Below are positions 11-63,378 of a stretch of 64,000 nucleotides of DNA, piece by piece (the stretch's first letter is position 1; the number at the start of each line of letters is the position of its first letter). The notes below the pieces were generated by a model. It did not search any database. It had not been told where the DNA came from and was given only the letters and a program-made list of their open reading frames with translations. The translations under genes and the position numbers were made by a program. Source of the stretch: Abditibacterium sp. (GTDB lineage Bacteria > Armatimonadota > Abditibacteriia > Abditibacteriales > Abditibacteriaceae); NCBI GenBank assembly GCA_965199495.1, contig CBDASK010000003.1, positions 2,912,001 through 2,976,000 of the forward strand, written 5' to 3'.

Positions 11-2290
11 GTGAAAGTGTTGCTTTATCTGTGGATATTGGCGTGGGGTTTCGACCGCGCGATTTTCTGGGCGACCGAAGCCGCGTGGTTTGGTAGCGTC
101 GGGCAGGGCGCGTGGTTTGGCGCGCGATTTTGGACGCAGTTCGCGTTGTTCTGGGGCGCTTTTGCTTTCGCCCTCGTCACCGCCGCCTTAACGATGCGCA
201 TCGCCGCGCGGCCCGCGCCGGGCGCCGAATTGCGCACGTTGACCGGCGTTTTGGAAGGTCTCGAACCGTTGCGGCGCAACGCGACTCGGTTGGCGTGGCT
301 GGCGTTAATCGTGGGCGCGTGGATTTTGGCGCGCACGATGGCGGGCGGTTGGGCCACTGTGATGTTAGCGCGCGCGGGCGATGTAGCCGATCCGATTTAT
401 GGTTTGCCTTTGGCGCGTCTTATCGTCAACGGTTTGTGGGAGTGGAGTCTGTTTTTGTTGGGCGCGTTGGCCTTCGCGGGCGGACTACGCGCCCTCCCGA
501 TTTTGGCGCAACGCGAACCGGCGCCGCCACTGCGGTTGTGGCACGCGTTGGGCGCGCTGGGAGCCTTGGTTTTATTGATTCGCGCGGCGCTTTATGCGGT
601 TTCGGCGAGCGAGAATATTTGGAGCGATGGGACAACCGGAGCTGAACTGTTTGTCGGTTTGCCGGTCGCAATAATCAGCGTCGCTTTGTGTTTGATGGCG
701 GCGTTTTGGTGCCTGAAACGGCCCGGCTATCGCAAGCTCGGCCTCGCCGTGGCTGCTGCTTTGTTCGCACCGCATTTGCTGCGCGTTGTGCTGGCGCCGT
801 TGGGTTTAATTGTGCCAACGCCCGCCGCAGTTCAAGTGCGCAATCGAGCCAATACCATCGCGGCGTGGGATTTGGATGCGCCCGCGCTTGCCGCCAACGC
901 GCCGCCACTCGCGGTGCATTGGCCGATCTGGAACGAAGAGGCGTTGCTTGGGTTGACGCGCGGCGAAGTGCCGCGTAAAGCGGGCCAGATTATTGACTGG
1001 CGACGCGCAACGATTGGGCCGCGCGGGGCGATTGTCGCGGGCGTTCCGGCGGGCATCGATAACTTGGGTTCACCGCACGACGCCGACGCGCCAAATGGCC
1101 TCGAATGGCTGGCCTATGATGTTACTCAAAATGTGGAAGGGCGCGCGCCGGTTGTGCCCGATGCCGAGCTGCCTCTCAGTTCGTTTTACGGTTTGGGCGG
1201 GCGTCCACTTTTGGGCAACGCGGCTTTGGATGCGGGCGTGCCGTTCGAGTTTTGGGGCTGGAAATTCGCGTGGGCGTGGCGTCTGCGCGATCCGTTCCTG
1301 ATGCTCGAAGGCGCGCGCGCCAACCGGTTATTGGTATTTCGCGGCGCGCTCGAAAGCGCGCAGATGTTGGCGCCATTTTTGACGTGGGACGAAGCGCAAC
1401 TGCGCATGACGCCGCAAGGCCCGCGCTGGGAAATGATCGGTTATGCCGCAACGCCGTTCTATCGCGGCGCCTTAGCGGCGAGCGAAGGCGAATTCGCGGG
1501 CGATAACGCCGCGCAAGCTGTCACGCTACTGCAAATGAATCCGCGCGATGGCCGCGTCGAATTCGCCGCGTTACCGGGCGCGCGTTGGAGCGCGCCGTGG
1601 AGCCGAATTCTCGGCGGGAGCGCGGTGGAAAACGCGGTGATGCCAAGACCGCAAACTCCCTTATTGGAAAGCGCGCGCGCCGTTGTCGCGCGGCGTCTGG
1701 GGCGCAAAAACGTGTTGAACGAAATGGCTTGGACGTGGACAAACGGTCGTGCCGCGCGCGTGCAATACGCGTCCGATTTGCCCGTTGGCGTGAGCGAACG
1801 TTTGGCCGCTCTTGATGCTGCCGCCGTGCGCGATTGGCCCGCAAAAGAGAGCGCAAAACTGCAAAATGGCGACGCCGTTTTGTGGCCCGACACGCGCGCG
1901 CCGGGCGGTTTTTGGGTGGGCCGCGCCTACTACTCCGCAACAGCCACGGCGGGCGTGGCCAGCGAGGGCGGCATCGCGCACGACGACAAACTGTGGCACG
2001 TTAGCCTGACCGGTCTGGCGCCTTCGCCTCTCGCCAGCGCCGACAATGCCAGCGCCGCCCTCGTCGCCTTTGATTTGCTTAATGTGCCAACACTACTCGC
2101 GCCCACGCAAAACGCCATTCCCGGCGCGCCCATTGATGCCAGCGCGTTGGCGTTATGGGCTTTGCAAGCGCACGACGCCGCGCAAAAAGCGTTGGCGGCT
2201 TCTAAGTGGGACGAATGGGCTAAACAGTCGAAGTTGGAGCGCAAGTTATTGGAACAAGTCGCGGCAGAGTTGGCGGCGCGGCGCGGATAA
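11..2290 (+). CDS. UPF0182-like integral membrane protein (divergent)
   Basis: 759-aa ORF with multiple N-terminal TM helices. The 'APFLTWD...W...GY...PFY' segment and the C-terminal 'A..AHDAAQKAL...KW..WA' helix resemble UPF0182 proteins. Confidence 0.6.
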   Translation: MKVLLYLWILAWGFDRAIFWATEAAWFGSVGQGAWFGARFWTQFALFWGAFAFALVTAALTMRIAARPAPGAELRTLTGVLEGLEPLRRNATRLAWLALIVGAWILARTMAGGWATVMLARAGDVADPIYGLPLARLIVNGLWEWSLFLLGALAFAGGLRALPILAQREPAPPLRLWHALGALGALVLLIRAALYAVSASENIWSDGTTGAELFVGLPVAIISVALCLMAAFWCLKRPGYRKLGLAVAAALFAPHLLRVVLAPLGLIVPTPAAVQVRNRANTIAAWDLDAPALAANAPPLAVHWPIWNEEALLGLTRGEVPRKAGQIIDWRRATIGPRGAIVAGVPAGIDNLGSPHDADAPNGLEWLAYDVTQNVEGRAPVVPDAELPLSSFYGLGGRPLLGNAALDAGVPFEFWGWKFAWAWRLRDPFLMLEGARANRLLVFRGALESAQMLAPFLTWDEAQLRMTPQGPRWEMIGYAATPFYRGALAASEGEFAGDNAAQAVTLLQMNPRDGRVEFAALPGARWSAPWSRILGGSAVENAVMPRPQTPLLESARAVVARRLGRKNVLNEMAWTWTNGRAARVQYASDLPVGVSERLAALDAAAVRDWPAKESAKLQNGDAVLWPDTRAPGGFWVGRAYYSATATAGVASEGGIAHDDKLWHVSLTGLAPSPLASADNASAALVAFDLLNVPTLLAPTQNAIPGAPIDASALALWALQAHDAAQKALAASKWDEWAKQSKLERKLLEQVAAELAARRG

Positions 2291-2295
2291 ATTGT

Positions 2296-2499
2296 AGAGG
2301 AGTCACGCCGTTCGCTTTTTGTGTCCGCGAAGGCGGACAGTTGCGCACGGAGTGCGCTTCAAGGCCCACATTTTAATGTGGGCCTTGAAGAAAAGCGCGT
2401 ATCCCTTTTGTCCCCCGATTGAAATCGGGGTCTTTGATCTCGCTTCGCGCGCAACTGTCCGCCTTCGCGGACACAAAAAGCGAACGGCGTGACTCCTCT
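2296..2499. repeat. Nested palindromic element (family E), 51-bp perfect inverted repeats with internal hairpins
   Basis: 2296-2346 is the exact reverse complement of 2449-2499. Each arm carries the hairpin TGTCCGC-GAAG-GCGGACA. The spacer holds hairpins CTTCAAGGCCCACAT/ATGTGGGCCTTGAAG and CCCCGAT/ATCGGGG. Confidence 0.9.
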
Positions 2500-2552
2500 T
2501 GTATTGGCTGTTAAATTTAATTGTTTGATTCGTAATTCGGAGGAAATCTAAC

Positions 2553-2634
2553 ATCAGTGGAGCTGACGCACCCTTCCAATCTGTGCGCTTTCGATGAACT
2601 CCGCCGAATGGAAAGGTGCGTTCGCCCCACTGAT
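2553..2634. repeat. REPIN/MITE-like palindrome, family A (degenerate copy)
   Basis: Arms ATCAGTGGAGCTGACGCACCCTTCCAATC ... GAATGGAAAGGTGCGTTCGCCCCACTGAT; homologous to the copies at 29562 and 36307. Confidence 0.85.
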
Positions 2635-3123: not shown

Positions 3124-3129
3124 TTAAAA

Positions 3130-4590
3130 ATGATTACCGATCTTTCCGCCGCGCAAATCGCGGCTCAAATTCAATCCAAAGAACTCTCGTGTCGCGAAGT
3201 GACCGCCGCATTTTTGGCGCGCACCGAAGCGCTCGAACCCCAAGTCGGCGCTTTTGTCAGCGTATTGTCCGAAGACGCGCTGAAACGCGCCGTCGCGCTC
3301 GATATGCGTTTGGCGGCGGGCGAAGACATCGGGCCATTGGGCGGTGTGCCAATCGCGCTCAAAGATAATATGTGTGCCAACGGCACGCGCACGACCTGTT
3401 CTTCCAAGATGCTGGAAAACTTCGTGGCGCCTTACGATGCGCACGTCGTGGAAAAACTGCGCGACGCGGGCGCCGTCGTGCTGGCCAAAGCCAACATGGA
3501 CGAGTTCGCGATGGGCAGTTCGACCGAAAACTCGGCGTTTTTCCCGACGAAAAACCCGTGGGATTTGAGTCGCGTGCCCGGCGGCAGTTCGGGCGGTTCG
3601 ACGGCCAGCGTCGCCGCGCGCGAAGTGCCGATTTCGTTGGGCAGCGATACCGGTGGCTCGATTCGCCAGCCCGCCAGCTTTTGCGGTTGCGTCGGCATGA
3701 AACCGACTTACGGCTTGGTTTCGCGCTATGGCTTGGTTGCTTTTGCCAGTTCCCTCGATCAAATCGGCCCAATTTCTAACACGGTCGAGGACGCCGCGCT
3801 GTTGTTGCAAGCTATCGCCGGACACGATGCGCGCGATTCGACTTCGATTGACCGCGTCGTGCCCGATTATCGCGCCGCCCTGAGCGGAGATATTCGCGGA
3901 CTTCGCGTCGGCGTGCCCTCGGAATACTTCGGTCAGGGCGTGCAGCCGTATGTCGCCAATGCCGTTCACAAAGCAATTGACAAATTGAAAGAGTTGGGCG
4001 CCGAAATCGTCGAAGTTTCGATGCCGACGACCGAATACGGGTTGGCCTGTTATTACATCATCGCGCCCTGCGAAGCCTCGTCAAACTTGGCGCGCTACGA
4101 TGGCGTGAAATACGGTTTGCGCGTGGCTGAGGCGGGCGACGATGTCATCGCGATGACCAGCAAAAGTCGCGCTGCGGGTTTTGGCCACGAAGTCCAGCAT
4201 CGCATCATGATCGGCGCGCACGCTTTGTCGAGCGGGTTTTACGATGCCTATTATTCCAAAGCGCAAAAAGTGCGCACCCTGATTCGTCAAGATTTCGACG
4301 CGGCTTTTTCCAAATGCGACGTGTTAGCCACGCCCACGGCGCCCTCGGTCGCGTTCCCGTTGGGTGACAAAACCGACAATCCGATTGCGATGAAGTTGGC
4401 CGACGTTTGCACGATTCCCGTCAACATGGCCGGAATCCCGGCGCTGTCGTTGCCGTGCGGTTTTGAGAACGGCTTGCCCATCGGTTTGCAACTCATTGGC
4501 AAATTATTGGACGAAAGCACGCTATTGCGAACTGCGCACGCCTATGAACAGGCGACGGATTGGCACAAACAACGGCCTGTTTTGGATTAA
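3130..4590 (+). CDS. gatA: Asp/Glu-tRNA amidotransferase subunit A
   Basis: Amidase signature GGSSGGS...[17 protein letters not shown] and [13 protein letters not shown]. Start moved to ATG 3130. Confidence 0.97.
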
Positions 4591-4610: not shown

Positions 4611-4943
4611 ATGCTTCCATCCTTTCCACTTCTCAGTGGCGCCGTGGCTGCTTTGTGCGTGGTCGCGATAATACCGTGGATTTTGGGCGTGCCCGGCGAT
4701 CCCGGCCCGCCGGGCCACGAAAGTAATTACGCGCGCGGCTGGAAAATGGGGCTGGGCGTTATCATTGTTTATCCGCTCGTGTGGGCGCTCGACTTCTTAC
4801 CCTATTTTATCTTTCGCGGCCTCGTCAGCCCGTCGGCGCAAGCGAGTTGGCAAAACATCAGTCAATGGATCGGCGCCATCGCGTTGGTTGCGGCGATACT
4901 TCGTTTGAGCTGGGCGTTTCGGGTTTTGAGCAAAGGCGCATGA
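4611..4943 (+). CDS. Small hypothetical membrane protein (3 TM)
   Basis: 110-aa ORF with three hydrophobic segments, filling the gap between gatA and gatB. Confidence 0.7.
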   Translation: MLPSFPLLSGAVAALCVVAIIPWILGVPGDPGPPGHESNYARGWKMGLGVIIVYPLVWALDFLPYFIFRGLVSPSAQASWQNISQWIGAIALVAAILRLSWAFRVLSKGA

Positions 4944-5022: not shown

Positions 5023-5029
5023 GCGCGCT

Positions 5030-6487
5030 ATGTCCCACCCCCAAACCAAATATGAAGTCGTCATCGGCATGGAAGTCCACGCCGAACTTTTGACGCAGTC
5101 CAAACAGTTCGTCGCCTCGCCTAACTTAGCTTTGGCGCCGCCCAATACTTTAGTTGATCCGGTCACTCTCGGCTTGCCGGGCGCGTTGCCCGTTCTCAAC
5201 CGCGCGGGCGTTGATTTATCTCTGCGCGCGACGTTGGCGCTCAACTGTGATATTTCGCGGCACTGCTTTTTCGAGCGCAAACACTATTTTTATCCCGATT
5301 TGCCCAAAGGTTATCAAATCACGCAAATGGCAAAACCACTGGGCGTCGGCGGCTATCTCGAAATCGAACTTCCCGACGGCACGCGCAAAAAAGTCGGCAT
5401 GCACGACGTTCACATCGAAGAAGACACCGGCAAATCGTCGCACGGCGAAAGCATCGGCGACCCCGATTCGTCGTTAATTGATTTGAATCGCGCCGGAATT
5501 CCCTTGCTTGAAATCGTCTCCGACCCCGATATGCGTTCGATTGAGGAAGCCGACGCTTACATGACGGCATTGCGCGAAATTTTGCTGTTCGCCGAAATTT
5601 CCGATTGCAAAATGGAGCAGGGCCGTTTGCGCTTCGAGGCCAGCGTCAGTCTGCGCGAATGGGGCGCCGAGCAATATGGCACGCGCGTCGAAGTCAAAAA
5701 CCTCAACTCGATGAAAGCCGTGCGCGACAGCTTGCGCGCCGAAATCGTGCGCCAGACCAAAGAGTTGGATAGGGGCAACGAAATCAAGCAGGAAACCATG
5801 TTGTGGGATGAAGCCACCGGCACCACGCAGTCCATGCGCAGCAAGGAACACGCGCACGATTATCGTTATATGCCCGAACCCGATTTGGCGCCGCTTCATA
5901 TTGACGACGCGTGGCTGGAGCGCGTCAAATCCGAAATGCCCGAACTGCCGCGCGAAAAACGCGCGCGCTTCACCGGCGATTTGGGACTTTCGGCTTACGA
6001 CGCCGAAGTTTTGACCGCCGCGCCCAATATCGCTCGTTATTATGAAGCGGTCTGCGAAGGCGCGTCTAATCCCAAGCAAATCGCCAACTGGGTTGCCAAC
6101 GAATTATTGGGACGTTTGAACGCGAGCGGAACTTCCCTTGACGAAGCGAAGGTTTCGCCCGCGCAATTGCGCGGCTTGGTCGCACTCATCGAAGACGGCA
6201 CGATTTCCGGCAAAATCGCCAAAGACGTGTTCGACGAAATGCTCGAATCCGGCGTAGACGCCGGTGCCATCGTCGAAGAAAAAGGCTTGAAACAGATGAG
6301 CGATAGCGGCGAACTTGAAGCGATTTGCCGGAGCGTCATCGAGAAATTGCCGAAAATCGTCGAGGATTATCGCGGTGGAAAACAGAAAGCGTTTGGCGCT
6401 CTGGTCGGCGGCGTGATGAAAGAAACGCGCGGCAAAGCCAACCCGGCGCTGGTCAACGAAATTTTGCTGAAAGTGCTGGGAGCGTAA
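5030..6487 (+). CDS. gatB: Asp/Glu-tRNA amidotransferase subunit B
   Basis: YEVVIGMEVHAEL, RKHYFYPDLPKGYQITQ, VEVKNLNS, DYRYMPEPDL, and a C-terminal YqeY-like domain. Start moved to ATG 5030. Confidence 0.97.
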   Translation: MSHPQTKYEVVIGMEVHAELLTQSKQFVASPNLALAPPNTLVDPVTLGLPGALPVLNRAGVDLSLRATLALNCDISRHCFFERKHYFYPDLPKGYQITQMAKPLGVGGYLEIELPDGTRKKVGMHDVHIEEDTGKSSHGESIGDPDSSLIDLNRAGIPLLEIVSDPDMRSIEEADAYMTALREILLFAEISDCKMEQGRLRFEASVSLREWGAEQYGTRVEVKNLNSMKAVRDSLRAEIVRQTKELDRGNEIKQETMLWDEATGTTQSMRSKEHAHDYRYMPEPDLAPLHIDDAWLERVKSEMPELPREKRARFTGDLGLSAYDAEVLTAAPNIARYYEAVCEGASNPKQIANWVANELLGRLNASGTSLDEAKVSPAQLRGLVALIEDGTISGKIAKDVFDEMLESGVDAGAIVEEKGLKQMSDSGELEAICRSVIEKLPKIVEDYRGGKQKAFGALVGGVMKETRGKANPALVNEILLKVLGA

Positions 6488-7216: not shown

Positions 7217-7717
7217 ATGATTCGCCCGGTAATTCTCGTCCCCGACGCGCGGCTTTCGACGCCGTGCGACAGCGTGACGCGCTTCGATAGCGCGTTGCGC
7301 GCGCTGGCGCGCGACTTGGAAGACACCATGCGCGATGGGCCGGGCAGCGTCGGCGTGGCTGCTTGCCAGATCGGCGCAATGACGCGCGTTTGTGTGGTAG
7401 ATACGTCGGGCCATCGCAAGTTCGGCGCGCAAAGTCAGGGTTTTTTCGTCTTGGTCAATCCCGTAATTATCCAGCGCCAAGGCGAACGCGTCGGGCGCGA
7501 AGGTTGTATGTCGCTCCCCGATTTTACCGCCAACGTGCGCCGCGCCGAAATGGTCGTGGTGACTTATCACGATTTAGACGGCAACGCGCGCGAGATTACC
7601 TGTTATGATTTCGAGGCCGTCGCCATGCAACACGAAATCGATCATCTTGATGGCATCCTATTTTTGGATCGAGTGACGAATCTGCAAACCGACGTTTTTC
7701 CGCGCAAAAGCAAGTGA
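7217..7717 (+). CDS. def: Peptide deformylase
   Basis: Motifs VGVAACQ, EGCMS and QHEIDHLDG. Confidence 0.95.
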   Translation: MIRPVILVPDARLSTPCDSVTRFDSALRALARDLEDTMRDGPGSVGVAACQIGAMTRVCVVDTSGHRKFGAQSQGFFVLVNPVIIQRQGERVGREGCMSLPDFTANVRRAEMVVVTYHDLDGNAREITCYDFEAVAMQHEIDHLDGILFLDRVTNLQTDVFPRKSK

Positions 7718-7778: not shown

Positions 7779-9008
7779 ATGAAATCCACTCGCTTTTTGC
7801 TGGCGACACTCGCGCTTTCGGGCGCCCCGTTGTTGGCCCCCTCTTCCGTTCTGGCCGCGCCCGCCGCGCCCGTCGCCGCACCAGCCACGCCTGCCGCAAT
7901 GCCGATGGATGCGGGCGCCGTCGCGTTGCTCGATAAATCGGTCAAAGCCTACGCCGCGCTCGACAAATTGTCGCAAAAGTTTGTTATCACCGATAATATG
8001 GGCGGTGCCGCTCAACCCAAAAGTTCGGGCACTGGCCTGATACAAATTCAAAAGCCCGGCAACGCGCGCTTGGAAGTCAAAGTCGGAGACGACCAAATGG
8101 TTTTCGTGAGTGATGGCGCCACGATGATTACGCAGATGGCTCCGACTTCGTATCAAAAAGAGGAGATGACCGAAGATAATATCGTGAGCGTTATTAGCGG
8201 CATTCCCTCGGCGGCCAGTCTGCCTTTGGGCGCGATGTTGAGCGGCGAAAATCCGCTGAGTTCTCAAGGTGGCCCGCAGTGGGAAAATGTCAAGCAAGTT
8301 TCGCTCGAAGGTATGCCCGGCGTTTCGATGCAACTGCCGACGCAGACGGGCCGCAATCCCGTCGTTTTTCAAGTTTTTCTCGATCCGAAAACCAATTTGA
8401 TCGCGCGCGTCGAAGCATCTACGTCCATCGCCACGAAGCCGGGCGAAGCCGCCGTTCCGTATTCCAACGTCACCACGTTTACGACCGATAACAGCGCCAT
8501 CACGCCCGCGACGTTCCAATATACGCCGCCCGCCGGAGCCAAACTCCTCACCGAAGCCGACCTCCCCAAATCCTATGATCCAGCCTTGGTCGTGGGCGCC
8601 AAACCGTTCGCTTTAAACGGCAAAACGTTGGAAGGCAAACCGTTGTCGCTCGATAGTTACAAAGGCAAAGTCGTGTTGCTCGATTTCTGGGCGACGTGGT
8701 GCGGCCCCTGCGTCGGCGAACTGCCCAACGTGCAGACCAACTACAAAACCTATCATCCCCAAGGCTTCGACATCGTCGCGGTTTCTCTGGACGAAGACAA
8801 AGACGCGTTGACCAGTTTTATCAAAGCCAAAGCGATGCCGTGGCCGCAAATTTTTGATGGCAAAGGCTGGGAAGCGGGCGACGCCAAAGCCTACGGCGTG
8901 CAGGCGATTCCGTTCTCGCTGCTCATCGGCAAAGACGGCAAAATCGCGGCAGTCAACCCGCGCGGCCCGGCGCTCGAACCCGCCATCAAAGCCGCGTTAG
9001 CTAAATAA
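7779..9008 (+). CDS. Secreted LolA-like (DUF2092-like) domain + TlpA thioredoxin-like protein
   Basis: Signal peptide, 'IQKPGNARLE...VSDG' LolA-like beta fold, C-terminal KVVLLDFWATWCGPC. Confidence 0.85.
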   Translation: MKSTRFLLATLALSGAPLLAPSSVLAAPAAPVAAPATPAAMPMDAGAVALLDKSVKAYAALDKLSQKFVITDNMGGAAQPKSSGTGLIQIQKPGNARLEVKVGDDQMVFVSDGATMITQMAPTSYQKEEMTEDNIVSVISGIPSAASLPLGAMLSGENPLSSQGGPQWENVKQVSLEGMPGVSMQLPTQTGRNPVVFQVFLDPKTNLIARVEASTSIATKPGEAAVPYSNVTTFTTDNSAITPATFQYTPPAGAKLLTEADLPKSYDPALVVGAKPFALNGKTLEGKPLSLDSYKGKVVLLDFWATWCGPCVGELPNVQTNYKTYHPQGFDIVAVSLDEDKDALTSFIKAKAMPWPQIFDGKGWEAGDAKAYGVQAIPFSLLIGKDGKIAAVNPRGPALEPAIKAALAK

Positions 9009-9693: not shown

Positions 9694-10950
9694 ATGAAAA
9701 CTACTCGCTCTCTGCTGGCCGCTCTGGCGGTCGCTCCCTTTCTCTGCGCGCCGCTTTGGGCGGCGCCCATCCCCACTACACCAATAGCAGCCACGGCGTC
9801 TGCCACCGAAGTTGAGGCGCCCAAATCAGCCGACGAACTGGCGGCACTCGCGATTTTCGACGAATCCATCAAAGCCTACGCGGCGTTGCCGAATTTATCG
9901 CAGAGCTTTACGTTTTCCACTTCGAGTAGTCGCACGCCCGACGCGCCTCAAAGTGGCAACGGCACTTTCGCTTTTATGCGACCCGACAAAGCGCGCGTCG
10001 CTTACAAATGGGGCGACCGCGACCGGCTCACCATCAGCGATGGAACGACGCTGATTAATCAGCGCGCGGCGGATAAGTTTGAAAGCGACGAAGCGGGCGC
10101 CAAAATCATTCCGCGCGTGGCTCTGATGTTGCCCGCCAGCACAGGGCTGCCGCTCCTTTTTCTTCTGGACGGTGTTAATCCGCTCCAAGGCGCTGGTCTC
10201 ACTTTCCAAAATCTCGTGCCCGTGGACGAAAAAGGGCGACAGACGATCACACTCGTTTCGCTTGCTGACAGCGCCAAAGTTCCGCAGACTACGATTCGTG
10301 TTACTCTCGATACTCGGACGCACTTAATCGCGCGAACCGAATACGAACTCAACATGGCTGCTCAACCCGGTGTTGATGGAAAGCCCGACGTAAAAGCGCT
10401 CAAAATCGTCAACACCATCCAATTTGCGCCCGCGCCTGCCGTTCAAGCGAGCGATTTTACTTTCGTCACGCCCGCTGGGGCGACGCTGACTAAAGTCGCC
10501 GACCAGTCCAAACCTTACGATGCGCGCTTGGTTGTTGGGGCCCAACCGTTCGCGTTGAGTGACAAAACGCTCGATGGTAAAGCGATTTCGCTGGACGATT
10601 ACAAAAGTAAAGTCGTGCTGCTCGACTTCTGGGCGACGTGGTGTGGCCCGTGCGTGGGTGAACTGCCCAACGTCAAAGCCAACTACGACAAATATCACGC
10701 GCAAGGTTTTGACATCGTCGGCATTTCGCTCGATGAGGATGAAGACGCATTGCGCAACTTTATCAAAGCCAAAGCGATGCCGTGGCCGCAAATTTTCGAT
10801 GGCAAAGGCTGGGAGGCGGGCGACGCCAAAACTTATGGCGTGCAAGCGATTCCATTTTCACTGCTCATCGGCAAAGACGGCACAATCGCGGCGGTCAACC
10901 CGCGCGGCGAAGAACTCGAACCGGCGCTTCAAGCGGCGCTGGCCAAATAA
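9694..10950 (+). CDS. Secreted LolA-like domain + TlpA thioredoxin-like protein (paralog of 7779)
   Basis: Signal peptide, FMRPDKARV...ISDG, C-terminal DFWATWCGPC nearly identical to that of the 7779 gene. Confidence 0.85.
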   Translation: MKTTRSLLAALAVAPFLCAPLWAAPIPTTPIAATASATEVEAPKSADELAALAIFDESIKAYAALPNLSQSFTFSTSSSRTPDAPQSGNGTFAFMRPDKARVAYKWGDRDRLTISDGTTLINQRAADKFESDEAGAKIIPRVALMLPASTGLPLLFLLDGVNPLQGAGLTFQNLVPVDEKGRQTITLVSLADSAKVPQTTIRVTLDTRTHLIARTEYELNMAAQPGVDGKPDVKALKIVNTIQFAPAPAVQASDFTFVTPAGATLTKVADQSKPYDARLVVGAQPFALSDKTLDGKAISLDDYKSKVVLLDFWATWCGPCVGELPNVKANYDKYHAQGFDIVGISLDEDEDALRNFIKAKAMPWPQIFDGKGWEAGDAKTYGVQAIPFSLLIGKDGTIAAVNPRGEELEPALQAALAK

Positions 10951-22653: not shown

Positions 22654-23037
22654 ATGAAACCAACTTTTTGTTGTCTGTCTTCTGTCTTGTTGACCGGCGT
22701 GGCTGTGGCGTTGCCCGCGCGTGCCGCGACGCCCCAATTTCAGCTCAGTGCCGTTGACGCCCAAACGTTTCATCTCGTCGTTTACCCGTCCGGCCAGCCT
22801 GCGCCGCCGCCGAGTCCGTTCGTCGTCGAAGACGCGAAGTGGCCGCAAGCGGTCACCGCAACTAACGCGATGGGTTCGTCGGTGCGCGTGGCGGGCGGCG
22901 CGCTCACTCTCGATGCGCGCGGCAACTGGCAACTCAAAGCGCCCAATAATTTGACGCTGAGCGGCGAAAACCGTGGTTTATGCGGGCAACGCGGTGAAGG
23001 TGAAGTTTTAAAAGCGGTTGAGAAATTGATGCGATAG
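22654..23037 (+). CDS. Short secreted protein, possibly a truncated N-terminal fragment of a larger enzyme
   Basis: Clear signal peptide (ALPARA) and a beta-rich region that ends abruptly. Confidence 0.5.
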   Translation: MKPTFCCLSSVLLTGVAVALPARAATPQFQLSAVDAQTFHLVVYPSGQPAPPPSPFVVEDAKWPQAVTATNAMGSSVRVAGGALTLDARGNWQLKAPNNLTLSGENRGLCGQRGEGEVLKAVEKLMR

Positions 23038-54029: not shown

Positions 54030-54620
54030 ATGAAACACAAAGCCTTTACTTGGGTAGAATTCGCTGTTGTTGTAGCGCTTTTAATCATTCTGCCGACGAC
54101 TTACTTTCTGTTTTTGGTGGGGGGGCACGGATCGGGATCGCGGCGTTCAAGTTGTCAATCGAATCTCAAGCAAATCGGCATGGGCTTTCTGATGTATGCG
54201 CAAGATTATAACGAGAAGTTCCCCGCCGTGGCTGCTTCGGACGGCTGGACAAACGCGGTGCAACCTTACGTCAAATCATGGCAAATTTTCCATTGCCCCT
54301 CGGCTTCATCGAACCGAGGTGAACACACGACCGATTACTATTACAACGCACGTTTGTCTGGCGTGAAACAAGGACAAATTGAAGCTCTCGAACTTTCGAT
54401 TCTCATGGCCGATGGCCTGAGCGGACAACCCGCCGATTACTCGTTGATGCAATTGCCCGCCGCGTGGCGCACCGACGAAAAATCTCCGGCGTGGCGTCAT
54501 ACCGGAACTGCCAACTACCTTTTCAGTGATGGCCACGCCAAACCGCTCAAACCGGAAAAAATTACGCTCGATAAACCACGCGCGGGCCATCCAACATTTT
54601 TATTGGGCAGGAGCCAATGA
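54030..54620 (+). CDS. Prepilin-type N-terminal/DUF1559-like, H-X9-DG protein 2
   Basis: MKHKA|FTWVE, SCQSNLKQ, RHTGTANYLFSDGHAK. Confidence 0.92.
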   Translation: MKHKAFTWVEFAVVVALLIILPTTYFLFLVGGHGSGSRRSSCQSNLKQIGMGFLMYAQDYNEKFPAVAASDGWTNAVQPYVKSWQIFHCPSASSNRGEHTTDYYYNARLSGVKQGQIEALELSILMADGLSGQPADYSLMQLPAAWRTDEKSPAWRHTGTANYLFSDGHAKPLKPEKITLDKPRAGHPTFLLGRSQ

Positions 54621-57052: not shown

Positions 57053-58936
57053 TTAATTGGGCGCGTCAATCTCGCCAGCGACTTGTGTCGCCACGTCGGC
57101 GTCGTAGCTCGAATTATATTTTTCTTCGATGGCGGCGCGTTTGACTTGCGCGGCGCGAATCGGCGCGATGTCGAATTTCTCGCCCCGGTCGAAATCGTAG
57201 ATGCCGTTTTCTTCCTGAAAAACATCCGTCAACTGCGTGTAGCAGTAGCCGAACATATCGGGATTATCGAGCAAAACGGCGCACAAACCGTCGAAGCGAT
57301 GATAAAACTCTTCCAGCGATTGCGGCGATTTGCCGTAACCCCACGACGCTTTGCGGTCGGTGGCCAAACCGTCGGCCAGCTTTTTCGCTGCCGGATTCCA
57401 GTGAATGCCGCCGAACTCGCTCACAAAGTAGGGTTGGCCGCGATAGGCGATGGACATCGGTTTCTCTTTTTCTCCGTTGACGAACGGTTTGCCCTTGGCC
57501 AAACCCTGCTGGTTGCGGGCGAATTTTTTCGGGTCTTGTTCGTAATCGTGCGAATCGTAAACGTCGGTGTCTTGGACGCGGTGGCTGTAGCCCGATGCGT
57601 CCAAAACCGGACGCGTGGTGTCCATCAGTTTGGTCATCAAATAGAGCGCGTGCGCGGCATCGTCCAATTCGGTGATTTCATCGCGAATCGGTTGGTGCGT
57701 TTCGTTGAGCGGGCACCAACCGATGATGCTGGGATGCGAATAATCGCGTTCCAGACACTCGGCCCACTGCGCCGCGAAGGTAATTCCGTGATGTTGCGCG
57801 TTATTATCCACGCTCTGAAAGCGGCAACCCCAATCGCCAAACTCGCCCCACACCAAGTAGCCTAAACGGTCGGCATGATACAAAAAACGCTCCTCGAAAA
57901 CTTTCTGATGCAAACGCGCGCCATTGAAACCGGCTTCCATCGAAAGCTGGATGTCCTCGACCAAAGCCGCGTCCGAAGGCGCCGTCATGATGCCGTCGGG
58001 ATAATAGCCCTGATCTAAAACCAAACGCTGAAACACGACTTCGCCGTTGATGCGAATCGCCTTGCCGTCAATGGCGGTCGAGCGCAGACCGGCGTAGGAA
58101 CTGGCTTTGTCCACAACTTGGCCGTCGGCGTCGAGCAGTTCGATGTCGATGTCGTAAAGCGTCGGACTGCCCGGCGCCCACAAATGACGGCGATTTTCGG
58201 GAATCTCTAAATCCAATCGCGGCGTCAAATCGTAGCCTAAATCGGCGGTTTGCGTCGTAATAACGCCGTCTCTATCTTTCAAAGTGGCGCGCACTTTGAG
58301 GTCGGGATTGCCAGCAGCCACGCGCTGTTCGAGGCGAAAGCGCCCGGCGCTGACTTCGGGCGTGATGCGCGGTCGCAACAGATGCGCTTTAGGCACCGGT
58401 TCCATCCACACGGTCTGCCAGATGCCGGTCGTGCGCGTATAAAGACAGCCGTGATTCTCGAAGCGCTGCGACTGTTTGCCGCGCGGCTTAGGCGTTTCGT
58501 TATCGTCGCGCGCGCGCACGCAAATCTCAATTTCTTCGCCGGGCTGGGCCAGTTCAAAAAGCGGGCAGGTGAAGGGCGAAAACCCGCCGCGATGTTTGCC
58601 GACTTCGACGCCGTTGACCCACACGGTCGCATCGTAATCCACGGCGCCAAAGTGCAGCAGCACGGTTTTTCCTTTCCAATCGGCGGGAATTTGAACGCGC
58701 TTTTTATACCAGACGGCGGGCATGAAATCGACGTAACCCAAACCCGACAGCGACGATTCGGGGCAAAATGGGACGGTGATTTCTGAGGGCAAATCGTGGC
58801 CGAGTTGGTTGAGATTGCGGTTGAGGCCGGAATCGCCCGCATCCATTTCAAATTGCCATTGGCCGTTGAGGTTGTGCCAATCGGGGCGGACGAACTGCGG
58901 GCGCGGATATTCGGGACGGGGAATGGAGTTGGACAT
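57053..58936 (-). CDS. Glycoside hydrolase family 2 (beta-galactosidase/glucuronidase-like)
   Basis: PRPEYPRPQ, NLNGQW, LHFGAVDY, TGIWQTVW, LVLDQGY, HPSIIGW..LNE, SEFGG, YTQLTDV.QE.NG. Confidence 0.93.
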   Translation of the reverse strand: MSNSIPRPEYPRPQFVRPDWHNLNGQWQFEMDAGDSGLNRNLNQLGHDLPSEITVPFCPESSLSGLGYVDFMPAVWYKKRVQIPADWKGKTVLLHFGAVDYDATVWVNGVEVGKHRGGFSPFTCPLFELAQPGEEIEICVRARDDNETPKPRGKQSQRFENHGCLYTRTTGIWQTVWMEPVPKAHLLRPRITPEVSAGRFRLEQRVAAGNPDLKVRATLKDRDGVITTQTADLGYDLTPRLDLEIPENRRHLWAPGSPTLYDIDIELLDADGQVVDKASSYAGLRSTAIDGKAIRINGEVVFQRLVLDQGYYPDGIMTAPSDAALVEDIQLSMEAGFNGARLHQKVFEERFLYHADRLGYLVWGEFGDWGCRFQSVDNNAQHHGITFAAQWAECLERDYSHPSIIGWCPLNETHQPIRDEITELDDAAHALYLMTKLMDTTRPVLDASGYSHRVQDTDVYDSHDYEQDPKKFARNQQGLAKGKPFVNGEKEKPMSIAYRGQPYFVSEFGGIHWNPAAKKLADGLATDRKASWGYGKSPQSLEEFYHRFDGLCAVLLDNPDMFGYCYTQLTDVFQEENGIYDFDRGEKFDIAPIRAAQVKRAAIEEKYNSSYDADVATQVAGEIDAPN

Positions 58937-59055: not shown

Positions 59056-59805
59056 TTAATCGAGCAACTGCGGCAAAATCTCTTCGGCGCGCCCCAGATA
59101 TTCTTCGCCGAAATACGGATTGCGCGTTTCCATCGGCGTCAAATTGACCATTATCGTGCGCGCCTTGTTATAAGCCGCGCCGCGCACAAACTCCGACGCC
59201 GGAGCCACAACGCCGCTCGTACCAATCGCCAGAAATAAATCGCAATCGCGCAACGCGCTTTTCACGCGATGCAAGGCATCCAAAGGCAACGCTTCGTTGA
59301 ACAAAGTAATATCGGGCCGCAAATATTCGCCGCAAATCGTGCAGCGCGGCACATTTTCCCATGTTGGATTGGCGACGAATTCGGCGTCGGGAACCCAATC
59401 GTCAACGAACGGTTTGGAAGCGCAACTTTCGTTGGTGCAGCGCGAGCGGCGCAAACTGCCGTGAATCTCGATAACGTCGCGGCTTCCGGCGCGTTGATGC
59501 AAACCGTCCACGTTTTGCGTGACGATGATGATTTCGCGGCCTTCGCGCCATTTGTCTTCCCAGTTGGCGAGCGTGACGTGCGCCGGGTTGGGCGCGAATT
59601 GCATTAAGCGACCGCGCGCGGCGCCGTGCGTCGCCCACATTTCGGGCAACAAAGTCGCGACGTTGCGACCATCAGCCACGCGCATGTAGGCGTCCGAAAT
59701 TTGACCCTGCGGCCCGCGAAACGTCGGGATGCCCGACGCCTGCGAAACGCCCGCGCCCGTCAAGACGACGATACATTGATAATTTTGGGTTTGCAGCGGT
59801 TGCAT
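59056..59805 (-). CDS. cobB: NAD-dependent deacylase (sirtuin)
   Basis: VLTGAGVSQASGIPTFR, PNPAH, TQNVDGLHQRAG, EIHGS, zinc ribbon, LRPDI..F.E, IGTSG.V.PA. Start probably ATG 59805. Confidence 0.92.
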   Translation of the reverse strand: MQPLQTQNYQCIVVLTGAGVSQASGIPTFRGPQGQISDAYMRVADGRNVATLLPEMWATHGAARGRLMQFAPNPAHVTLANWEDKWREGREIIIVTQNVDGLHQRAGSRDVIEIHGSLRRSRCTNESCASKPFVDDWVPDAEFVANPTWENVPRCTICGEYLRPDITLFNEALPLDALHRVKSALRDCDLFLAIGTSGVVAPASEFVRGAAYNKARTIMVNLTPMETRNPYFGEEYLGRAEEILPQLLD

Positions 59806-59909: not shown

Positions 59910-60746
59910 TTATCTGGAAGGCATATTCTCGACGCGAATCCAGAACAGTTTCGACCAATTTTTGCCCGTCACAAATACGCGTTTGCTGGCCGCGTCATAG
60001 GCGATGCCGTTCAACACGTCTTCCTGTCCGGTGCGGTCGGCGGCGCCCAGCAAGCCGGTCATGTCCAGTTCGTCCACGACTTTGCCATTGTTCGGATCGA
60101 TAATCACGATGTCATCGGTTTGCCAGACGTTAGCCCACGCGTAGCCGTCAATCCATTCGAGTTCGTTCAAGTTGCGCAGTGGCGCGCCGTCTTGCGTGAC
60201 TTTGAGCGTCTTTTTCGCCGCGAAGTTTTTGGTGTCGCGCCATGTCAAAACGTCGCTGCCGTCGCTTTGAATCAAATCGGTGCCATCGAAAGTCAAACCC
60301 CAACCTTCGTTTTGATAATTGAATTTGGCCAATGGTTTGAAAGTTTTGGCGTCGTAGGCAAAGCCGATTTTGGTTTGCCACGTCAGTTGATACAACCGGT
60401 CGCCCGCCAACGCCAGACCTTCGCCAAACAATTGTGGCGGCAAATTCACGCTTTTAATCGCCTGTCCCGATTGCAAATCCACGCGGCGCAGTTTCGACTG
60501 GCCTTCTAATCCGGTGCTTTCGTAGAGCGTGCCGTCGTGCCACAACAAACCCTCGGTAAACGAAGTCGGATCGTGGGGAAACGCTTTGATAATTGACCAA
60601 TCGAGCGTTACAACATTCGATTGTGAAACGGGTAGGGCGGGCGTTTGCAAGGGCACGCCCGGCGTGGCTGTTGGCGCCGCCGCAATCGGTTGGCGCGGCG
60701 CGCAACCGCCTATAAACAAAAGCGCGAGAAGAGAAAGACGATTCAC
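59910..60746 (-). CDS. Glutaminyl-peptide cyclotransferase (lipoprotein)
   Basis: PHD..SFTEGL, LYESTG, FGEG, YQLTW, EGWGL, LNELE, VLNGIAYD, TGKNW. Lipobox IGGC; GTG start at 60746. Confidence 0.93.
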   Translation of the reverse strand: MNRLSLLALLFIGGCAPRQPIAAAPTATPGVPLQTPALPVSQSNVVTLDWSIIKAFPHDPTSFTEGLLWHDGTLYESTGLEGQSKLRRVDLQSGQAIKSVNLPPQLFGEGLALAGDRLYQLTWQTKIGFAYDAKTFKPLAKFNYQNEGWGLTFDGTDLIQSDGSDVLTWRDTKNFAAKKTLKVTQDGAPLRNLNELEWIDGYAWANVWQTDDIVIIDPNNGKVVDELDMTGLLGAADRTGQEDVLNGIAYDAASKRVFVTGKNWSKLFWIRVENMPSR

Positions 60747-60804: not shown

Positions 60805-61776
60805 ATGAACCAAATCGCAACTTCGCCCGACAACGCGCGCTTCTGGGTTCGCCCCTACGAATTCGAGGGCGACGGCAGCCACGGCGCCGCCGAGAATGTC
60901 GCGTCGCTCGAAGTCGGCGGCAAAACGCGGACGTTCTGGCTCAAAACGTTGGAGAATCGTTTGTTCTTTCGTGAAGTCGGGCGCGACGAAAATTGGAATT
61001 TCGGCGCGATTGACGAATTAAGCGACGCGGAAAAATCGGCTTTACCGTCGGCGTTGGCGCGCGTTTTGGCGAGCGAGAATTATGGGCGCGTGGTTTTGCC
61101 CGACAGTCCGTCGAGTCCATTTTATTTATTGGCCGCGCTCGATGGTCGCATTCGATGCGATGTGCCGAAACATTCGTTGCACGCGTTTTTTGATCACAAA
61201 TATCCGCATACGATGTGGAACAATTCTTTTTTGGATTGGCGACCGGGCGCCTTCCAGAAGATCGGCACTTTTCATTCGATTCGCTATAATGCGCCCGAAT
61301 TTTCGGAAAAACTCGGTGATATTCCGGTGCCCGTGATTGCCGCGCATTGGTCTGTTGGCTCGCAAAAAGAGTGGGAGCATATGCTTCAAACTCTCTGTTT
61401 CTGCTTCTGGCCAGAGTTCAATAACATCGAAGATTTAGTCGCGATAGAGTGGTATTTACAAAGCGATTTTTCTATGAAAGATGGACTGTTTCTCTGCGGA
61501 CTTGAGTTCGCCACAGACATCCCATCGGAGACGCAACGCCCTTTATTGCATGCTCTCCAACGTCGGCTTCGCTATGTCAGAAAGCAGAACCTTTTTGCGG
61601 GCCAAAAGAGGAATCCTCGCCCCAATATGTTGCCGTTCATTGTGCCAGAAGAAATTTCAGGAACAATTCACGCACCGACGCACCACGAAATTCTCGAAGC
61701 GCACCTCTATCTGCGCGATTGGATTAACCAACGCTTGCCGCCCGAACGCGCGCGCGAATGGCTCGATTTTTCTTGA
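60805..61776 (+). CDS. Hypothetical protein
   Basis: 323-aa ORF filling the gap; no recognised motif. Confidence 0.7.
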   Translation: MNQIATSPDNARFWVRPYEFEGDGSHGAAENVASLEVGGKTRTFWLKTLENRLFFREVGRDENWNFGAIDELSDAEKSALPSALARVLASENYGRVVLPDSPSSPFYLLAALDGRIRCDVPKHSLHAFFDHKYPHTMWNNSFLDWRPGAFQKIGTFHSIRYNAPEFSEKLGDIPVPVIAAHWSVGSQKEWEHMLQTLCFCFWPEFNNIEDLVAIEWYLQSDFSMKDGLFLCGLEFATDIPSETQRPLLHALQRRLRYVRKQNLFAGQKRNPRPNMLPFIVPEEISGTIHAPTHHEILEAHLYLRDWINQRLPPERAREWLDFS

Positions 61777-61786
61777 GTTTTTCATT

Positions 61787-62137
61787 TCAAAGATGACTGA
61801 GGATATTTACAATCGCTCCGTACGGATCGGCGACAAAGAAACGGCGCACGCCCCAAACTTCGTCGGTCAACGGATAAACGATTTCAATGTCGAGCGCGAT
61901 AGCCCGATTATACATCTCATCAACATCGGAAACCTCGACGCTGATGCCGGGATGCGGCGCGCCCGAATCGTCGGGCCGCACCACGCTAATTTGCGCCGCG
62001 ATAATATTGGTCGCCGCGAAAGTGATAATTTCATCTCTTTCCATTGCAACTTCTAAATTCAAGAAGTCCACATAAAAAGCGCGACTCGGTTCGAGTTCGC
62101 CCACCAAAATATTAGTAACGATGCGTTTGGTGTTCAT
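61787..62137 (-). CDS. VOC/glyoxalase family protein
   Basis: RAFYVDFLNL, ISVEVSDVD, PLTDEVWGVRRFFVADP.G..VNIL. Confidence 0.92.
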   Translation of the reverse strand: MNTKRIVTNILVGELEPSRAFYVDFLNLEVAMERDEIITFAATNIIAAQISVVRPDDSGAPHPGISVEVSDVDEMYNRAIALDIEIVYPLTDEVWGVRRFFVADPYGAIVNILSHL

Positions 62138-62145
62138 AGTAAAAT

Positions 62146-63378
62146 TTATTTATCCATCGGATCGAGATAAATCACTTTGCCAAACGGCGCGCTCATTTCG
62201 GGTGTAATCGAACACCACAGAAACGGCATCGTCGGCGCGACCTCGCCGAAACTGCCATACATATCAGTGAGATACAAACCGACTTTGGCGCCCGATTGGT
62301 TGATTTTTTCAATCGCCGGGCCAAACGCCGTGCCGCCGCCGCCCTTGAATTCGATGGCGCCGTCGCGCACTTTGTCGGCGAAACTTTTGCCGTCGTTTTT
62401 GACCATAATTTCGCCGGTCACTTCGGCATCGGCGACGACCAAGTAAATCTCGCAGCCCGCGCGCTTCTGCACGGCATCAATTTCAGCGCAGAATCTTCGC
62501 AAAATTCCATCATCAATCGAACCCGACGTATCCACAGCCACGGCGATGCGGCGAATACCTTTATCGGGCCGCGTGGCTGGCTCGAAAACTTCGCTGCCGG
62601 TGGCTAACATGCGGCGTCCGGGGCGGCTCCAATTCTCGGTCGAACGCGGCATCACGGCGTCCTGCAAAAACGCGCGCAAAATGCGTGGCCACGGCGTTTT
62701 GGTGACGGGGAAATCGGACGCCAATCGGCGCATCATGCCGCCGGGCCGGTCGCCCGCCTGCGCGCGAATCAATCTCGAAGCCCAAATGCGGCTGGCGACA
62801 TCTTCGCTCAAATCGCCGCTCGTCTCGCCCGCGCCGGGCACCAAATCGAAGCCTTCAATGCCGCGTTCGTTCATCCATTTTTCCAGCCACTGCTCCATAT
62901 CTTTGCCGTCTTTGGGCAAACCGATTTGTTCGAGCAATTGCAGGTAAAGCGCCTCAGTTGACCAACTCGCGGGCGGACGAGCCGCCAGCGTTTGTTCGTC
63001 CAGAATTTTGTCGAATTTGACGCCGTCACCGGGCGTTTGCAGCCAATCCATGCCGTCAAGGGAATAATTGATAATCGCGTCACAGGCGATGTTCCAGATG
63101 TGCGCGTGCGCGCTCGATTGGCGCGCATATTTCATCCCGCGCGGGCAATGGCGTAGCGCGACGTGCAGAATTTCGTGGCACAGAATAAAGGCGCGTTCGA
63201 GCGGCGCGTAATCCCAAAACTTGCCGCCAAAAACCACCTCGCGCCCGTTTGTGTAAGCGACGAACCCATCATCAGCCACGGCGCGGTAGGGCACCCACAA
63301 CGCGATGGCGGCAAAGCCGGGCGATTTGGTCACGCAAAAACGCGCGAGCGTTTGCAATTCGGTCTTGCGATTGGACAT
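62146..63378 (-). CDS. DUF2201-type putative metallopeptidase + vWA-like domain protein
   Basis: AYTNG, CHEILHVAL.H, WNIACD..IN, VAVDTSGSI, GGGGT.F, YLTD.YG. Start moved to ATG 63378. Confidence 0.88.
   Translation of the reverse strand: MSNRKTELQTLARFCVTKSPGFAAIALWVPYRAVADDGFVAYTNGREVVFGGKFWDYAPLERAFILCHEILHVALRHCPRGMKYARQSSAHAHIWNIACDAIINYSLDGMDWLQTPGDGVKFDKILDEQTLAARPPASWSTEALYLQLLEQIGLPKDGKDMEQWLEKWMNERGIEGFDLVPGAGETSGDLSEDVASRIWASRLIRAQAGDRPGGMMRRLASDFPVTKTPWPRILRAFLQDAVMPRSTENWSRPGRRMLATGSEVFEPATRPDKGIRRIAVAVDTSGSIDDGILRRFCAEIDAVQKRAGCEIYLVVADAEVTGEIMVKNDGKSFADKVRDGAIEFKGGGGTAFGPAIEKINQSGAKVGLYLTDMYGSFGEVAPTMPFLWCSITPEMSAPFGKVIYLDPMDK

Follow-up and report, generated by a model that had tools for sequence, protein, structure and literature searches.

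A non-palindromic word repeated thousands of times in an Abditibacterium chromosome as a candidate self-DNA uptake sequence

Introduction

A 64-kb stretch of the chromosome of a soil-living Abditibacterium species (contig C3, positions 2912001-2976000; referred to below as the window) contains 18 copies of one short word, GCAGCCACGGC, and the question that this raises is what has placed so many copies in genes of all kinds. The initial annotation of the stretch, made from the sequence alone, had proposed an undescribed DNA uptake or chromosome signal sequence. Here, the word is traced through the whole source genome and its relatives. It is written into genes and spacers by point substitutions, and is maintained by a directional force acting on the DNA itself. 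Biased uptake of self-DNA, as known for the DNA uptake sequence (DUS) of the Neisseriaceae and the uptake signal sequence (USS) of the Pasteurellaceae, is tentatively favoured as that force.

By the account of bioRxiv 10.1101/2025.10.24.684340, two proteobacterial families are the only ones with documented sequence-specific DNA uptake. No paper on the word itself, on uptake sequences in this lineage or on repeats in Abditibacterium genomes was found among open-access papers and bioRxiv, in agreement with the initial annotation, which knew of no such word in the lineage. The same literature yielded no putative or novel uptake sequence outside the two known families.

The source genome (G000) consists of three contigs, C3 (4.72 Mb, 55.7% GC), C1 (24.7 kb) and C2 (64.6 kb), and was compared with 40 relatives; 13 of the genomes in the comparison are from the genus. 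Coding sequences (CDS) were called with a simple self-trained open reading frame (ORF) scorer, which sets each start so that the frame is as long as possible. The resulting 3564 CDS cover 85% of C3, and the genic and intergenic figures below are bound by the limits of this caller.

Results

The word in the window

The 18 exact copies of GCAGCCACGGC are divided equally between the strands (9 on each), as previously counted and at the same coordinates, compared with 0.06 expected and a maximum of 1 in 100 dinucleotide shuffles. Seventeen of them extend to the 12-mer GCAGCCACGGCG, also as claimed, and 8 additional 10-mer cores bring the total for CAGCCACGGC in the window to 26. The variant CAGCCACGCC occurs 13 times (0.15 expected), which is the number that had been estimated for it, though one of its coordinates was off by one (55179, not 55178). 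The 8-nt core CAGCCACG is present in 50 copies, 22 on the (+) strand and 28 on the (-) strand. The pattern CAGCCACG[G/C/T]CG is matched by 39 of these 50, and 49 are inside called CDS (Table 1). The word differs from its own reverse complement and is hence not a palindrome of the type of highly iterated palindrome 1 (HIP1).

The reading frames had been assigned correctly. AATA and AVAA dominate, and GSHG is found at 60876, PWL at 17355 and QPR at 41753. The observation that the word uses rare alanine (Ala) codons also holds, as it uses GCA and GCT where the Ala codon fractions are GCG 0.505, GCC 0.326, GCT 0.105 and GCA 0.063.

Abundance, symmetry and spacing on the chromosome

The most frequent 11-mer of the G000 genome is CAGCCACGGCG (1051 copies) and the most frequent 10-mer is AGCCACGGCG (1374 copies). 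The core is present on C3 in 3083 copies, 1558 (+) and 1525 (-), and the strand ratio stays near 1:1 in every one of the 19 250-kb bins, confirming the absence of strand bias noted in the window and revealing no replichore polarity in any bin. Just 2 of the 471 10-kb segments of the chromosome are without a core. Confinement to this locus, as for a local site of the matS type, was considered and rejected because the density is even along the 4.72-Mb chromosome. The aligned sites give the logo a-G-CAGCCACG-[G.42 / C.36 / T.18]-C-G, with no conservation further out (to ±25 nt).

Spacing between cores is slightly more even than random, with a mean of 1529 nt, a coefficient of variation (CV) of 0.93, and 8.6% of spacings under 200 nt compared with 12.3% under an exponential distribution. 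Close pairs (within 60 nt) are strongly dependent on orientation, with 60 in (+-), 39 in (-+), 4 in (++) and 2 in (--) arrangement where approximately 30 are expected per class. The scarcity of direct pairs may be due to loss by slippage, and the surplus of inverted pairs may result from template-switch correction or a preference for hairpins. Eighty-two of the 99 close inverted pairs in G000 are inside CDS. One in the window, at 17340 and 17355, forms a near-perfect palindrome (17339-17363).

A signal at the level of DNA

The enrichment persists when codons are shuffled, a check that the initial annotation had proposed as a means of recognizing a peptide artefact. In 20 within-gene synonymous-codon shuffles, genic CAGCCACGGCG was expected 21.1 ± 4.4 times and is observed 956 times, and the genic core was expected 271 ± 16 times and is observed 2824 times. 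Markov models predict 5.9 (order 1), 11.7 (order 3) or 23.8 (order 4) copies of CAGCCACGGCG, compared with the 1051 found. Enrichment over the shuffles is seen in all six frame and orientation classes, where the core is raised 3.7-23x and the 11-nt pattern 11.5-94x.

The word is also enriched between genes. Gaps of 20-150 nt contain 37 cores (2.0 expected) and gaps of 150-300 nt contain 40 (3.5 expected). The non-CDS class as a whole consists in part of uncalled genes, because codon periodicity is seen around its sites, and the intergenic claim therefore rests on these 20-300 nt gaps. The spacers are only 49.5% GC, which bears on their low raw density of cores.

Codon-level alignments with relatives revealed that sites arise through point changes, with no insertions or deletions. 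In def, for example, 7 of the 8 loci from relatives keep the tetrapeptide GVAA, the exception being GIAA in G004, and the spelling GTG-GCT-GC, which gives the word, is found only in G000 and in its sister species G011; six other Abditibacterium loci with GVAA lack the word.

A further feature of C3 is that at least 10 palindromic hexamers are 20- to 150-fold rarer than expected, including CGGCCG (15 copies, 2366 expected), CTCGAG (20, 2050 expected) and CCGCGG (52, 2482 expected), as well as CCCGGG, GAGCTC, TTCGAA, GGGCCC, CACGTG, GCCGGC and CCATGG. Congeners show this avoidance whether or not they carry the word, which suggests that the genus as a whole is under heavy restriction pressure.

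Distribution and dialects among relatives

Enrichment of CAGCCACGGCG was detected only in G000 (1051 copies), G011 (839) and G004 (231). The other 38 genomes have 0-47 copies, the level of the reversed-word control, and none of the 28 genomes outside the genus is enriched for the 11-mer. Likewise, the core is enriched in 3 of the 13 genus genomes (G000 3091, G011 2676 and G004 3503 copies), and in the remaining 10 it does not exceed the reversed-word control. These three are mutually the closest by GatB, with 92-93% identity compared with ≤82% for the others. Their DNA identities to G000, each from a sample of approximately 400 kb, are 84% over 255 kb for G011 and 79% over 266 kb for G004. No hyper-abundant 10-mer is present in 400-kb samples of G009 and G012, where the maximum is 12-15 compared with 80-176 in the three carriers. 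As enrichment is found only in the three closest relatives and no other dialect appears in the samples, the word is an innovation of a small clade, as opposed to a trait of the entire genus in numerous dialects.

The logo of G011, aGCAGCCACGsCG, is identical to that of G000. G004 has a different dialect, ACAsCAGCCACGTCc, which keeps the 8-nt core but places it between ACA[C/G] and TCC. The corresponding 14-mer, ACACCAGCCACGTC, occurs 1406 times in G004, 9 times in G000, 5 times in G011, once in G006 and not at all in G012. Much of the G004 form is in hairpins with arms of approximately 20 nt, loops of 8-12 nt and a constant order of the arms, which are mostly intergenic (the density of its 16-mer is 0.88 per kb in non-coding DNA and 0.075 per kb in CDS). 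However, 106 cores are deep in CDS within 238 kb of G004 (0.45 per kb), with the same but weaker flank preferences, and since these share the dialect, the genic habit and the dialect belong together. A terminator scan of L004 (G004 hairpins) found 35 sites compared with 36 expected, the scan scoring no loops of >8 nt.

Two local amplifications were seen. At L134:470-640 (G004:C3:360373-360540), the left arm of the G004 hairpin is repeated seven times with a 19-nt period and is followed by a single right arm. L135:320-400 contains three copies with a 27-nt period, apparently in a repeat-rich coding region.

Conservation

Alignment with orthologs, another check suggested at the outset, found the sites conserved above background in G011. 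When windows in the same codon phase are used for comparison, 117 of 165 G000 cores are identical in G011 (58.6 expected), as are 73 of 114 11-nt patterns (29.6 expected). Mismatches at the 41 non-identical pattern sites are distributed bimodally: 21 sites have one, 7 have two and 13 have four or more. For the 107 of 114 sites that are ≥90 nt from the end of a block, identity is 0.87-0.97 at the 11 positions of the word and approximately 0.85 in the flanks. No excess conservation was seen against G004, either for cores (45 of 162, 42.5 expected) or for patterns (11 of 105, 18.7 expected), as expected if the flank specificity has changed. Gene order is scrambled between G000 and G004.

Scarcity in acquired DNA

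Depletion in acquired DNA, which had likewise been named as a property to look for, is found both on the small replicons and in a chromosomal island array. C1 has 2 cores where 16 would be present at the chromosomal rate, C2 has 6 where there would be 42, and the 11-mer CAGCCACGGCG was not found on either. The largest core-free gaps on C3 cluster at 1.12-1.26 Mb. This region is made up of three islands in an array, each with a large serine recombinase and bounded by a comM 3' remnant. The islands were inserted successively into the 3' end of comM, leaving three 3' remnants and one intact comM frame of 519 codons. Their cargo is of the defence type and includes a type I restriction-modification system, a TIR protein, a KAP NTPase and a transposase, as well as genes for an Eco57I-like methylase with SNF2, PLD and DEAD/MZB helicase genes. 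The 133-kb array has 29 cores (87 expected) and 13 copies of the full pattern (60 expected), and the depletion includes segments of normal GC content (54-57%). In extent, the array covers L176-L181 (G000:C3:1115001-1230000) and continues to C3:1255900.

Uptake machinery and candidate readers

G000 encodes ComEC, DprA, a ComEA-type HHH_3 protein and an intact ComM. There are also 8 secretin matches, 8 matches to PilB/PilT-type ATPases and 47 prepilin motifs, and a pilB-pilT-pilC-pilD operon is followed by four pilin-like genes. The competence genes sought on the suggestion of the initial annotation (comEC, comEA-like, dprA, secretins and pilins) are thus present.

One pilin-like protein of the pil operon, of 618 residues (L182:10592-12448; G000:C3:868592-870445), shares only 57% identity between G000 and G011, where its two pilin-like neighbours share 82% and 86% and GatB shares 93%. 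It is a fast-evolving surface protein.

Neither RecC (PF04257) nor a nuclease-helicase of the AddA/RecB type was found in G000. The sole large PD-(D/E)XK protein is a Dna2-like superfamily 1 helicase of 1421 residues with an N-terminal nuclease and AAA_11/AAA_12 domains. Its gene (L183:5365-9630 (-)) adjoins a gene for a bacterial type IB topoisomerase (9908-11038 (-)).

Sites, neighbouring genes and other repeats

The 50 cores in the window are listed in Table 1. Five tandem paralogues at 53337-56400 (+), 49-58% identical, predict small prepilin-type proteins with the DUF1559 / H-X9-DG signature, and two of the five carry the word. The window also includes four genes with a redoxin/AhpC-TSA domain (7779-10950 and 33425-34288), two of which predict proteins of approximately 410 residues with long N-terminal extensions.

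Two other repeat families were seen in G000. A GTAG-headed hairpin of approximately 33 nt, resembling repetitive extragenic palindromic (REP) sequences, is present on C3 in 153 copies as judged by the 13-mer GTAGAGACACCGA; it is intergenic (for example at 83229, 161577 and 288497) and unrelated to the word. A family of 16-mers with 131 copies each (for example CAAGACCCGATTAAAA) looks like one or more large clustered regularly interspaced short palindromic repeat (CRISPR) arrays.

Table 1. Core sites in the window. Core, CAGCCACG; full word, GCAGCCACGGCG. Strand of each CDS is given in brackets after its coordinates.
Position	Strand	Form	Gene or CDS	Orientation, frame and remarks
294..301	-	core only, flank CCA	CDS 1-2290(+)	antisense
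748..755	-	full word	CDS 1-2290(+)	antisense, AVAA
1941..1948	+	CAGCCACGGCG	CDS 1-2290(+)	sense
4122..4129	-	core only	gatA 3001-4590(+)	not at equivalent codons of G011, G004
4643..4650	-	full word	small ORF 4611-4943(+)	AVAA; also in G011 (L003)
5910..5917	-	core only	gatB 5006-6487(+)	
7354..7361	-	GCAGCCACGCCG variant	def 7217-7717(+)	GVAA; via synonymous GCT, shared with G011
7882..7889	+	core only, CCT flank	redoxin-domain gene 7779-9008(+)	
9788..9795	+	full word	CDS 9694-10950(+)	AATA
11288..11295	-	full word		outside called CDS; within alternative ORF 10782-11999
13648..13655	-	CAGCCACGGCG	CDS 12892-14049(-)	sense, TATA
14451..14458	+	full word	helicase gene 14105-17068(+)	AATA
15763..15770	-	GCAGCCACGGC then A	helicase gene 14105-17068(+)	AVAA; sole 11-mer of 18 without the G extension
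17340..17347	+	full word	CDS 17192-17983(+)	AATA; left arm of inverted pair
17355..17362	-	full word	CDS 17192-17983(+)	PWL; right arm of inverted pair
18166..18173	+	GCAGCCACGTCG variant	CDS 17953-18921(-)	antisense
18235..18242	+	CAGCCACGCCG variant	CDS 17953-18921(-)	antisense
18850..18857	-	GCAGCCACGCCG variant	CDS 17953-18921(-)	sense, AATP
22698..22705	-	CAGCCACGCCG variant	ORF 22654-23037(+)	antisense
23866..23873	-	full word	CDS 23591-26863(+)	AVAA
25083..25090	+	full word	CDS 23591-26863(+)	AATA
26409..26416	+	full word	CDS 23591-26863(+)	AATA
26656..26663	-	CAGCCACGGCG	CDS 23591-26863(+)	antisense
29453..29460	-	CAGCCACGGCG	CDS 28317-29534(+)	antisense
34486..34493	+	CAGCCACGGCG	hydantoinase-family gene 34292-36283(-)	close inverted pair with 34498
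34498..34505	-	GCAGCCACGCCG variant	hydantoinase-family gene 34292-36283(-)	SSHA
37489..37496	-	CAGCCACGGCG	EamA gene 37138-38034(-)	sense
39804..39811	-	GCAGCCACGCCG variant	CDS 39461-42604(+)	antisense, AWL
40014..40021	+	full word	CDS 39461-42604(+)	AATA
41753..41760	+	core, GGG flank	CDS 39461-42604(+)	QPR
43534..43541	-	full word	peptidase M20 gene 42674-44149(+)	AVAA
43641..43648	+	full word	peptidase M20 gene 42674-44149(+)	AATA
45006..45013	-	core, CCC flank	CDS 44232-45038(-)	sense
45235..45242	-	core, GGT flank	CDS 45085-45966(-)	sense
45649..45656	-	GCAGCCACGCCG variant	CDS 45085-45966(-)	AATP
48432..48439	-	GCAGCCACGTCG variant	trpA 48307-49161(-)	SSHV
50329..50336	+	GCAGCCACGTCG variant	CDS 49709-51304(-)	antisense; close inverted pair with 50347
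50347..50354	-	CAGCCACGCCG variant	CDS 49709-51304(-)	sense
51576..51583	+	full word	CDS 51301-52239(-)	AVAA
51973..51980	-	full word	CDS 51301-52239(-)	AATA
54227..54234	-	full word	pilin-like gene 54030-54620(+)	AVAA
55179..55186	+	GCAGCCACGCCG variant	pilin-like gene 54617-55207(+)	AATP
58315..58322	+	core, CGC flank	GH2 gene 57053-58936(-)	antisense
59673..59680	+	core, CGC flank	SIR2 gene 59056-59853(-)	antisense
60663..60670	-	CAGCCACGCCG variant	glutamine cyclotransferase gene 59910-60794(-)	sense
60876..60883	+	full word	CDS 60805-61776(+)	GSHG
62535..62542	+	CAGCCACGGCG	CDS 62146-63507(-)	antisense
62572..62579	-	core, CGG flank	CDS 62146-63507(-)	sense
63273..63280	+	CAGCCACGGCG	CDS 62146-63507(-)	antisense
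63723..63730	+	CAGCCACGTCG variant	CDS 63504-end(-)	antisense

Discussion

Comparison with known systems

The properties that define DNA uptake-enhancing sequences (DUES) are set out in bioRxiv 10.1101/2025.10.24.684340, PMC3630211 and PMC2397512, and the present word shares with them its copy number, its presence on both strands, its genic and intergenic location, silent placement in frames that tolerate it, scarcity in acquired DNA, conservation, and restriction to a clade, with dialects built on one core. One close counterpart is the DUS of the Neisseriaceae, which is read by the minor pilin ComP. Like the DUS, the word is short and non-palindromic, numbers thousands of copies across the two strands, within genes and spacers alike, is conserved above its flanks, is enriched in the core genome and is missing from recent acquisitions. 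Related species carry dialects with a common core, and inverted pairs form hairpins. Unlike the DUS, it has a sequence unrelated to the DUS quoted in PMC3630211 and a host in an unrelated phylum (Abditibacteriota/Armatimonadota), and the core shared by its dialects is 8 nt long, compared with the 3 nt that DUS dialects share according to PMC3630211. It further differs from the DUS in that only 8% of G000 cores are outside CDS, with few intergenic pairs, and in the recent origin of the word, within one genus. In the Neisseriaceae and Pasteurellaceae, about half of the words are located in terminators, according to bioRxiv 10.1101/2025.10.24.684340.

The USS of the Pasteurellaceae is described in Hin and Apl types with the minor pilin ComN as predicted receptor. 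The word resembles it in being mostly genic in tolerant frames, in having subtypes with a common core and in its strand symmetry, but is GC-rich and has no AT-rich flanks in the logo to ±25 nt. HIP1 of cyanobacteria is an 8-nt palindrome found approximately once per kb in genes, where it arises through silent changes, and its function is not established. An 8-nt core placed in genes through silent changes is common to both, whereas the present word is non-palindromic and has lineage dialects with asymmetric flanks. REP sequences and their paired form (REPIN) are hairpins associated with RAYT transposases. The G004 form is similar to these as an intergenic hairpin family with long conserved arms, but the G000 and G011 form is genic, single-copy and made by substitution, and has no RAYT association.

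A possible self-DNA uptake word

Since the properties of the word match those that define the DUS and USS, and the parts of an uptake route are present, biased uptake followed by homologous recombination ranks as the likeliest force, and we tentatively suggest that the word is a self-DNA uptake word of the DUS/USS kind. A surface DNA receptor on the type IV pilus and ComEA-ComEC route would prefer DNA that bears the word, and alleles with the word would then be taken up and recombined into the chromosome more often. The driver may be molecular drive alone, or molecular drive together with selection for conspecific exchange. The word would accumulate wherever proteins tolerate it, chiefly in Ala-rich tetrapeptides, and would stay conserved, yet be rare in DNA that had recently arrived by other routes.

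The computational signatures of an uptake sequence (no polarity, no peptide or codon artefact, scarcity in foreign DNA, conservation, clade restriction with a second dialect, and uptake genes) were found, and to that extent the proposal of the initial annotation stands, but no reader protein was found and the competence genes do not discriminate between carriers and non-carriers. Several observations weigh against uptake. The competence genes are no rarer in congeners that lack the word (ComEC in 13 of 13 genus genomes, a secretin in 13 of 13 and HHH_3 in 12 of 13) and, being found in essentially all of them, provide no explanation for the restriction to one clade. No clade-specific receptor emerged from three large pilin-like genes in the pilus operon, each of which has orthologs across most of the genus. 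In G000, 92% of cores are genic (0.37 per kb between genes, 0.70 in genes), only 17 of the 99 close inverted pairs are outside CDS, and the G004 form, with its conserved 20-nt hairpin arms, is more like REP sequences than like DUS pairs. One-mismatch variants of the core (8-mers) are at background and not elevated, though this comparison, in which near-cognate words can look depleted, is confounded because several of them contain avoided palindromic hexamers. No uptake or transformation data for the phylum were found among open-access papers and bioRxiv. Finally, any other directional force specific to the chromosome would give every one of these signatures too.

Alternative explanations

Such a force could come from a chromosomal protein for nucleoid structure, segregation, repair loading or self-marking, with the word as its binding site kept by host selection; the initial annotation had named a nucleoid or repair protein as its alternative. 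The near-complete tiling (2 of 471 10-kb segments empty), the slightly even spacing (CV 0.93; 8.6% compared with 12.3% of spacings under 200 nt), the scarcity on mobile DNA and the conservation above background are all consistent with this, and acquisition of a single DNA-binding protein could explain why the word arose suddenly in one clade. Known site families of this type, however, have tens to hundreds of members and are usually polar or regionally confined, whereas the word has thousands of copies with neither polarity nor regional pattern, and as no candidate protein emerged we consider this explanation unlikely. Comparably doubtful is an origin without any reader, as a by-product of biased mutation, repair or gene conversion, comparable to the build-up of HIP1 in cyanobacteria. 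Enrichment in all frames and in spacers, the use of rare codons, the unelevated near-cognate variants and the heavy restriction-type pressure in the genus (at least 10 hexamers avoided 20- to 150-fold) would all agree with a by-product, and an excess of inverted over direct pairs is the kind of pattern that replication-template effects produce. However, we know of no repair system that makes a non-palindromic 11-12-mer from all kinds of mismatch, the avoidance of palindromes is genus-wide where the word is not, and in G004 both flanks have changed around an unchanged 8-nt core, which looks like a change in the specificity of a reader.

Spread of a REP/REPIN-like hairpin by a Y1 (RAYT-type) transposase, with the G004 hairpin as the original and the genic copies secondary, is very unlikely. 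It would account for the density of G004 hairpins in non-coding DNA (0.88 per kb, compared with 0.075 per kb in CDS) and for the G004 locus where the left arm has been amplified 7 times, and Y1_Tnp genes are present. Yet these genes are found in 12 of the 13 genus genomes regardless of the word, and hairpins were seen on both sides of none of the 4 G004 and none of the 3 G000 Y1 genes checked. The genic copies come from silent substitutions with no insertion, 92% of G000 cores are genic single copies, the 106 deep-CDS cores in 238 kb of G004 are of the same dialect, and G000 has a separate, unrelated GTAG-headed repeat of the REP kind. Still less probable is a signal read by a helicase-nuclease or translocase, as Chi and the polar sequences that orient FtsK (KOPS) are. 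An 8-nt core at approximately one per 3 kb per strand is in the range of Chi sites, and the word is scarce on mobile DNA and conserved across the core genome. The lack of strand polarity in every 250-kb bin comes close to refuting it, and G000 has no RecC and only a Dna2-like protein, not one of the AddA/RecB type, as its large PD-(D/E)XK protein; moreover, the specificity extends to 11-15 nt and, in G004, to hairpins. The two dominant frames, which encode AATA and AVAA, would fit an artefact produced by Ala-rich peptides, by codon usage or by base composition, but this explanation is refuted and retains hardly any likelihood, given the synonymous shuffles (21 compared with 956), the frame-wise tests, the order-4 Markov model (24 compared with 1051), the use of rare Ala codons and the ten congeners of similar composition that lack the word.

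Implications

If the word is indeed used in self-DNA uptake, it could represent a third independent invention of sequence-specific self-DNA uptake, the first outside the Proteobacteria, recent, within one genus and with two dialects, a possibility that we put forward with some reserve. Its origin would then be bracketed by 3 carrier species and 10 congeners in a barely cultured phylum, Abditibacteriota, and, being recent, should allow a comparison of gene content between the 3 and the 10 to expose the receptor and the birth of such a system. For the study of how such words and receptors come about, genomes from before and after the event, together with a dialect split, are available here. The identity of the reader, and the question whether molecular drive suffices on its own, become testable. 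In practice, the word is a marker that distinguishes native from recently acquired DNA in these genomes. Even without a role in uptake, some undescribed machine would be reading an 11-15-nt word thousands of times per chromosome.

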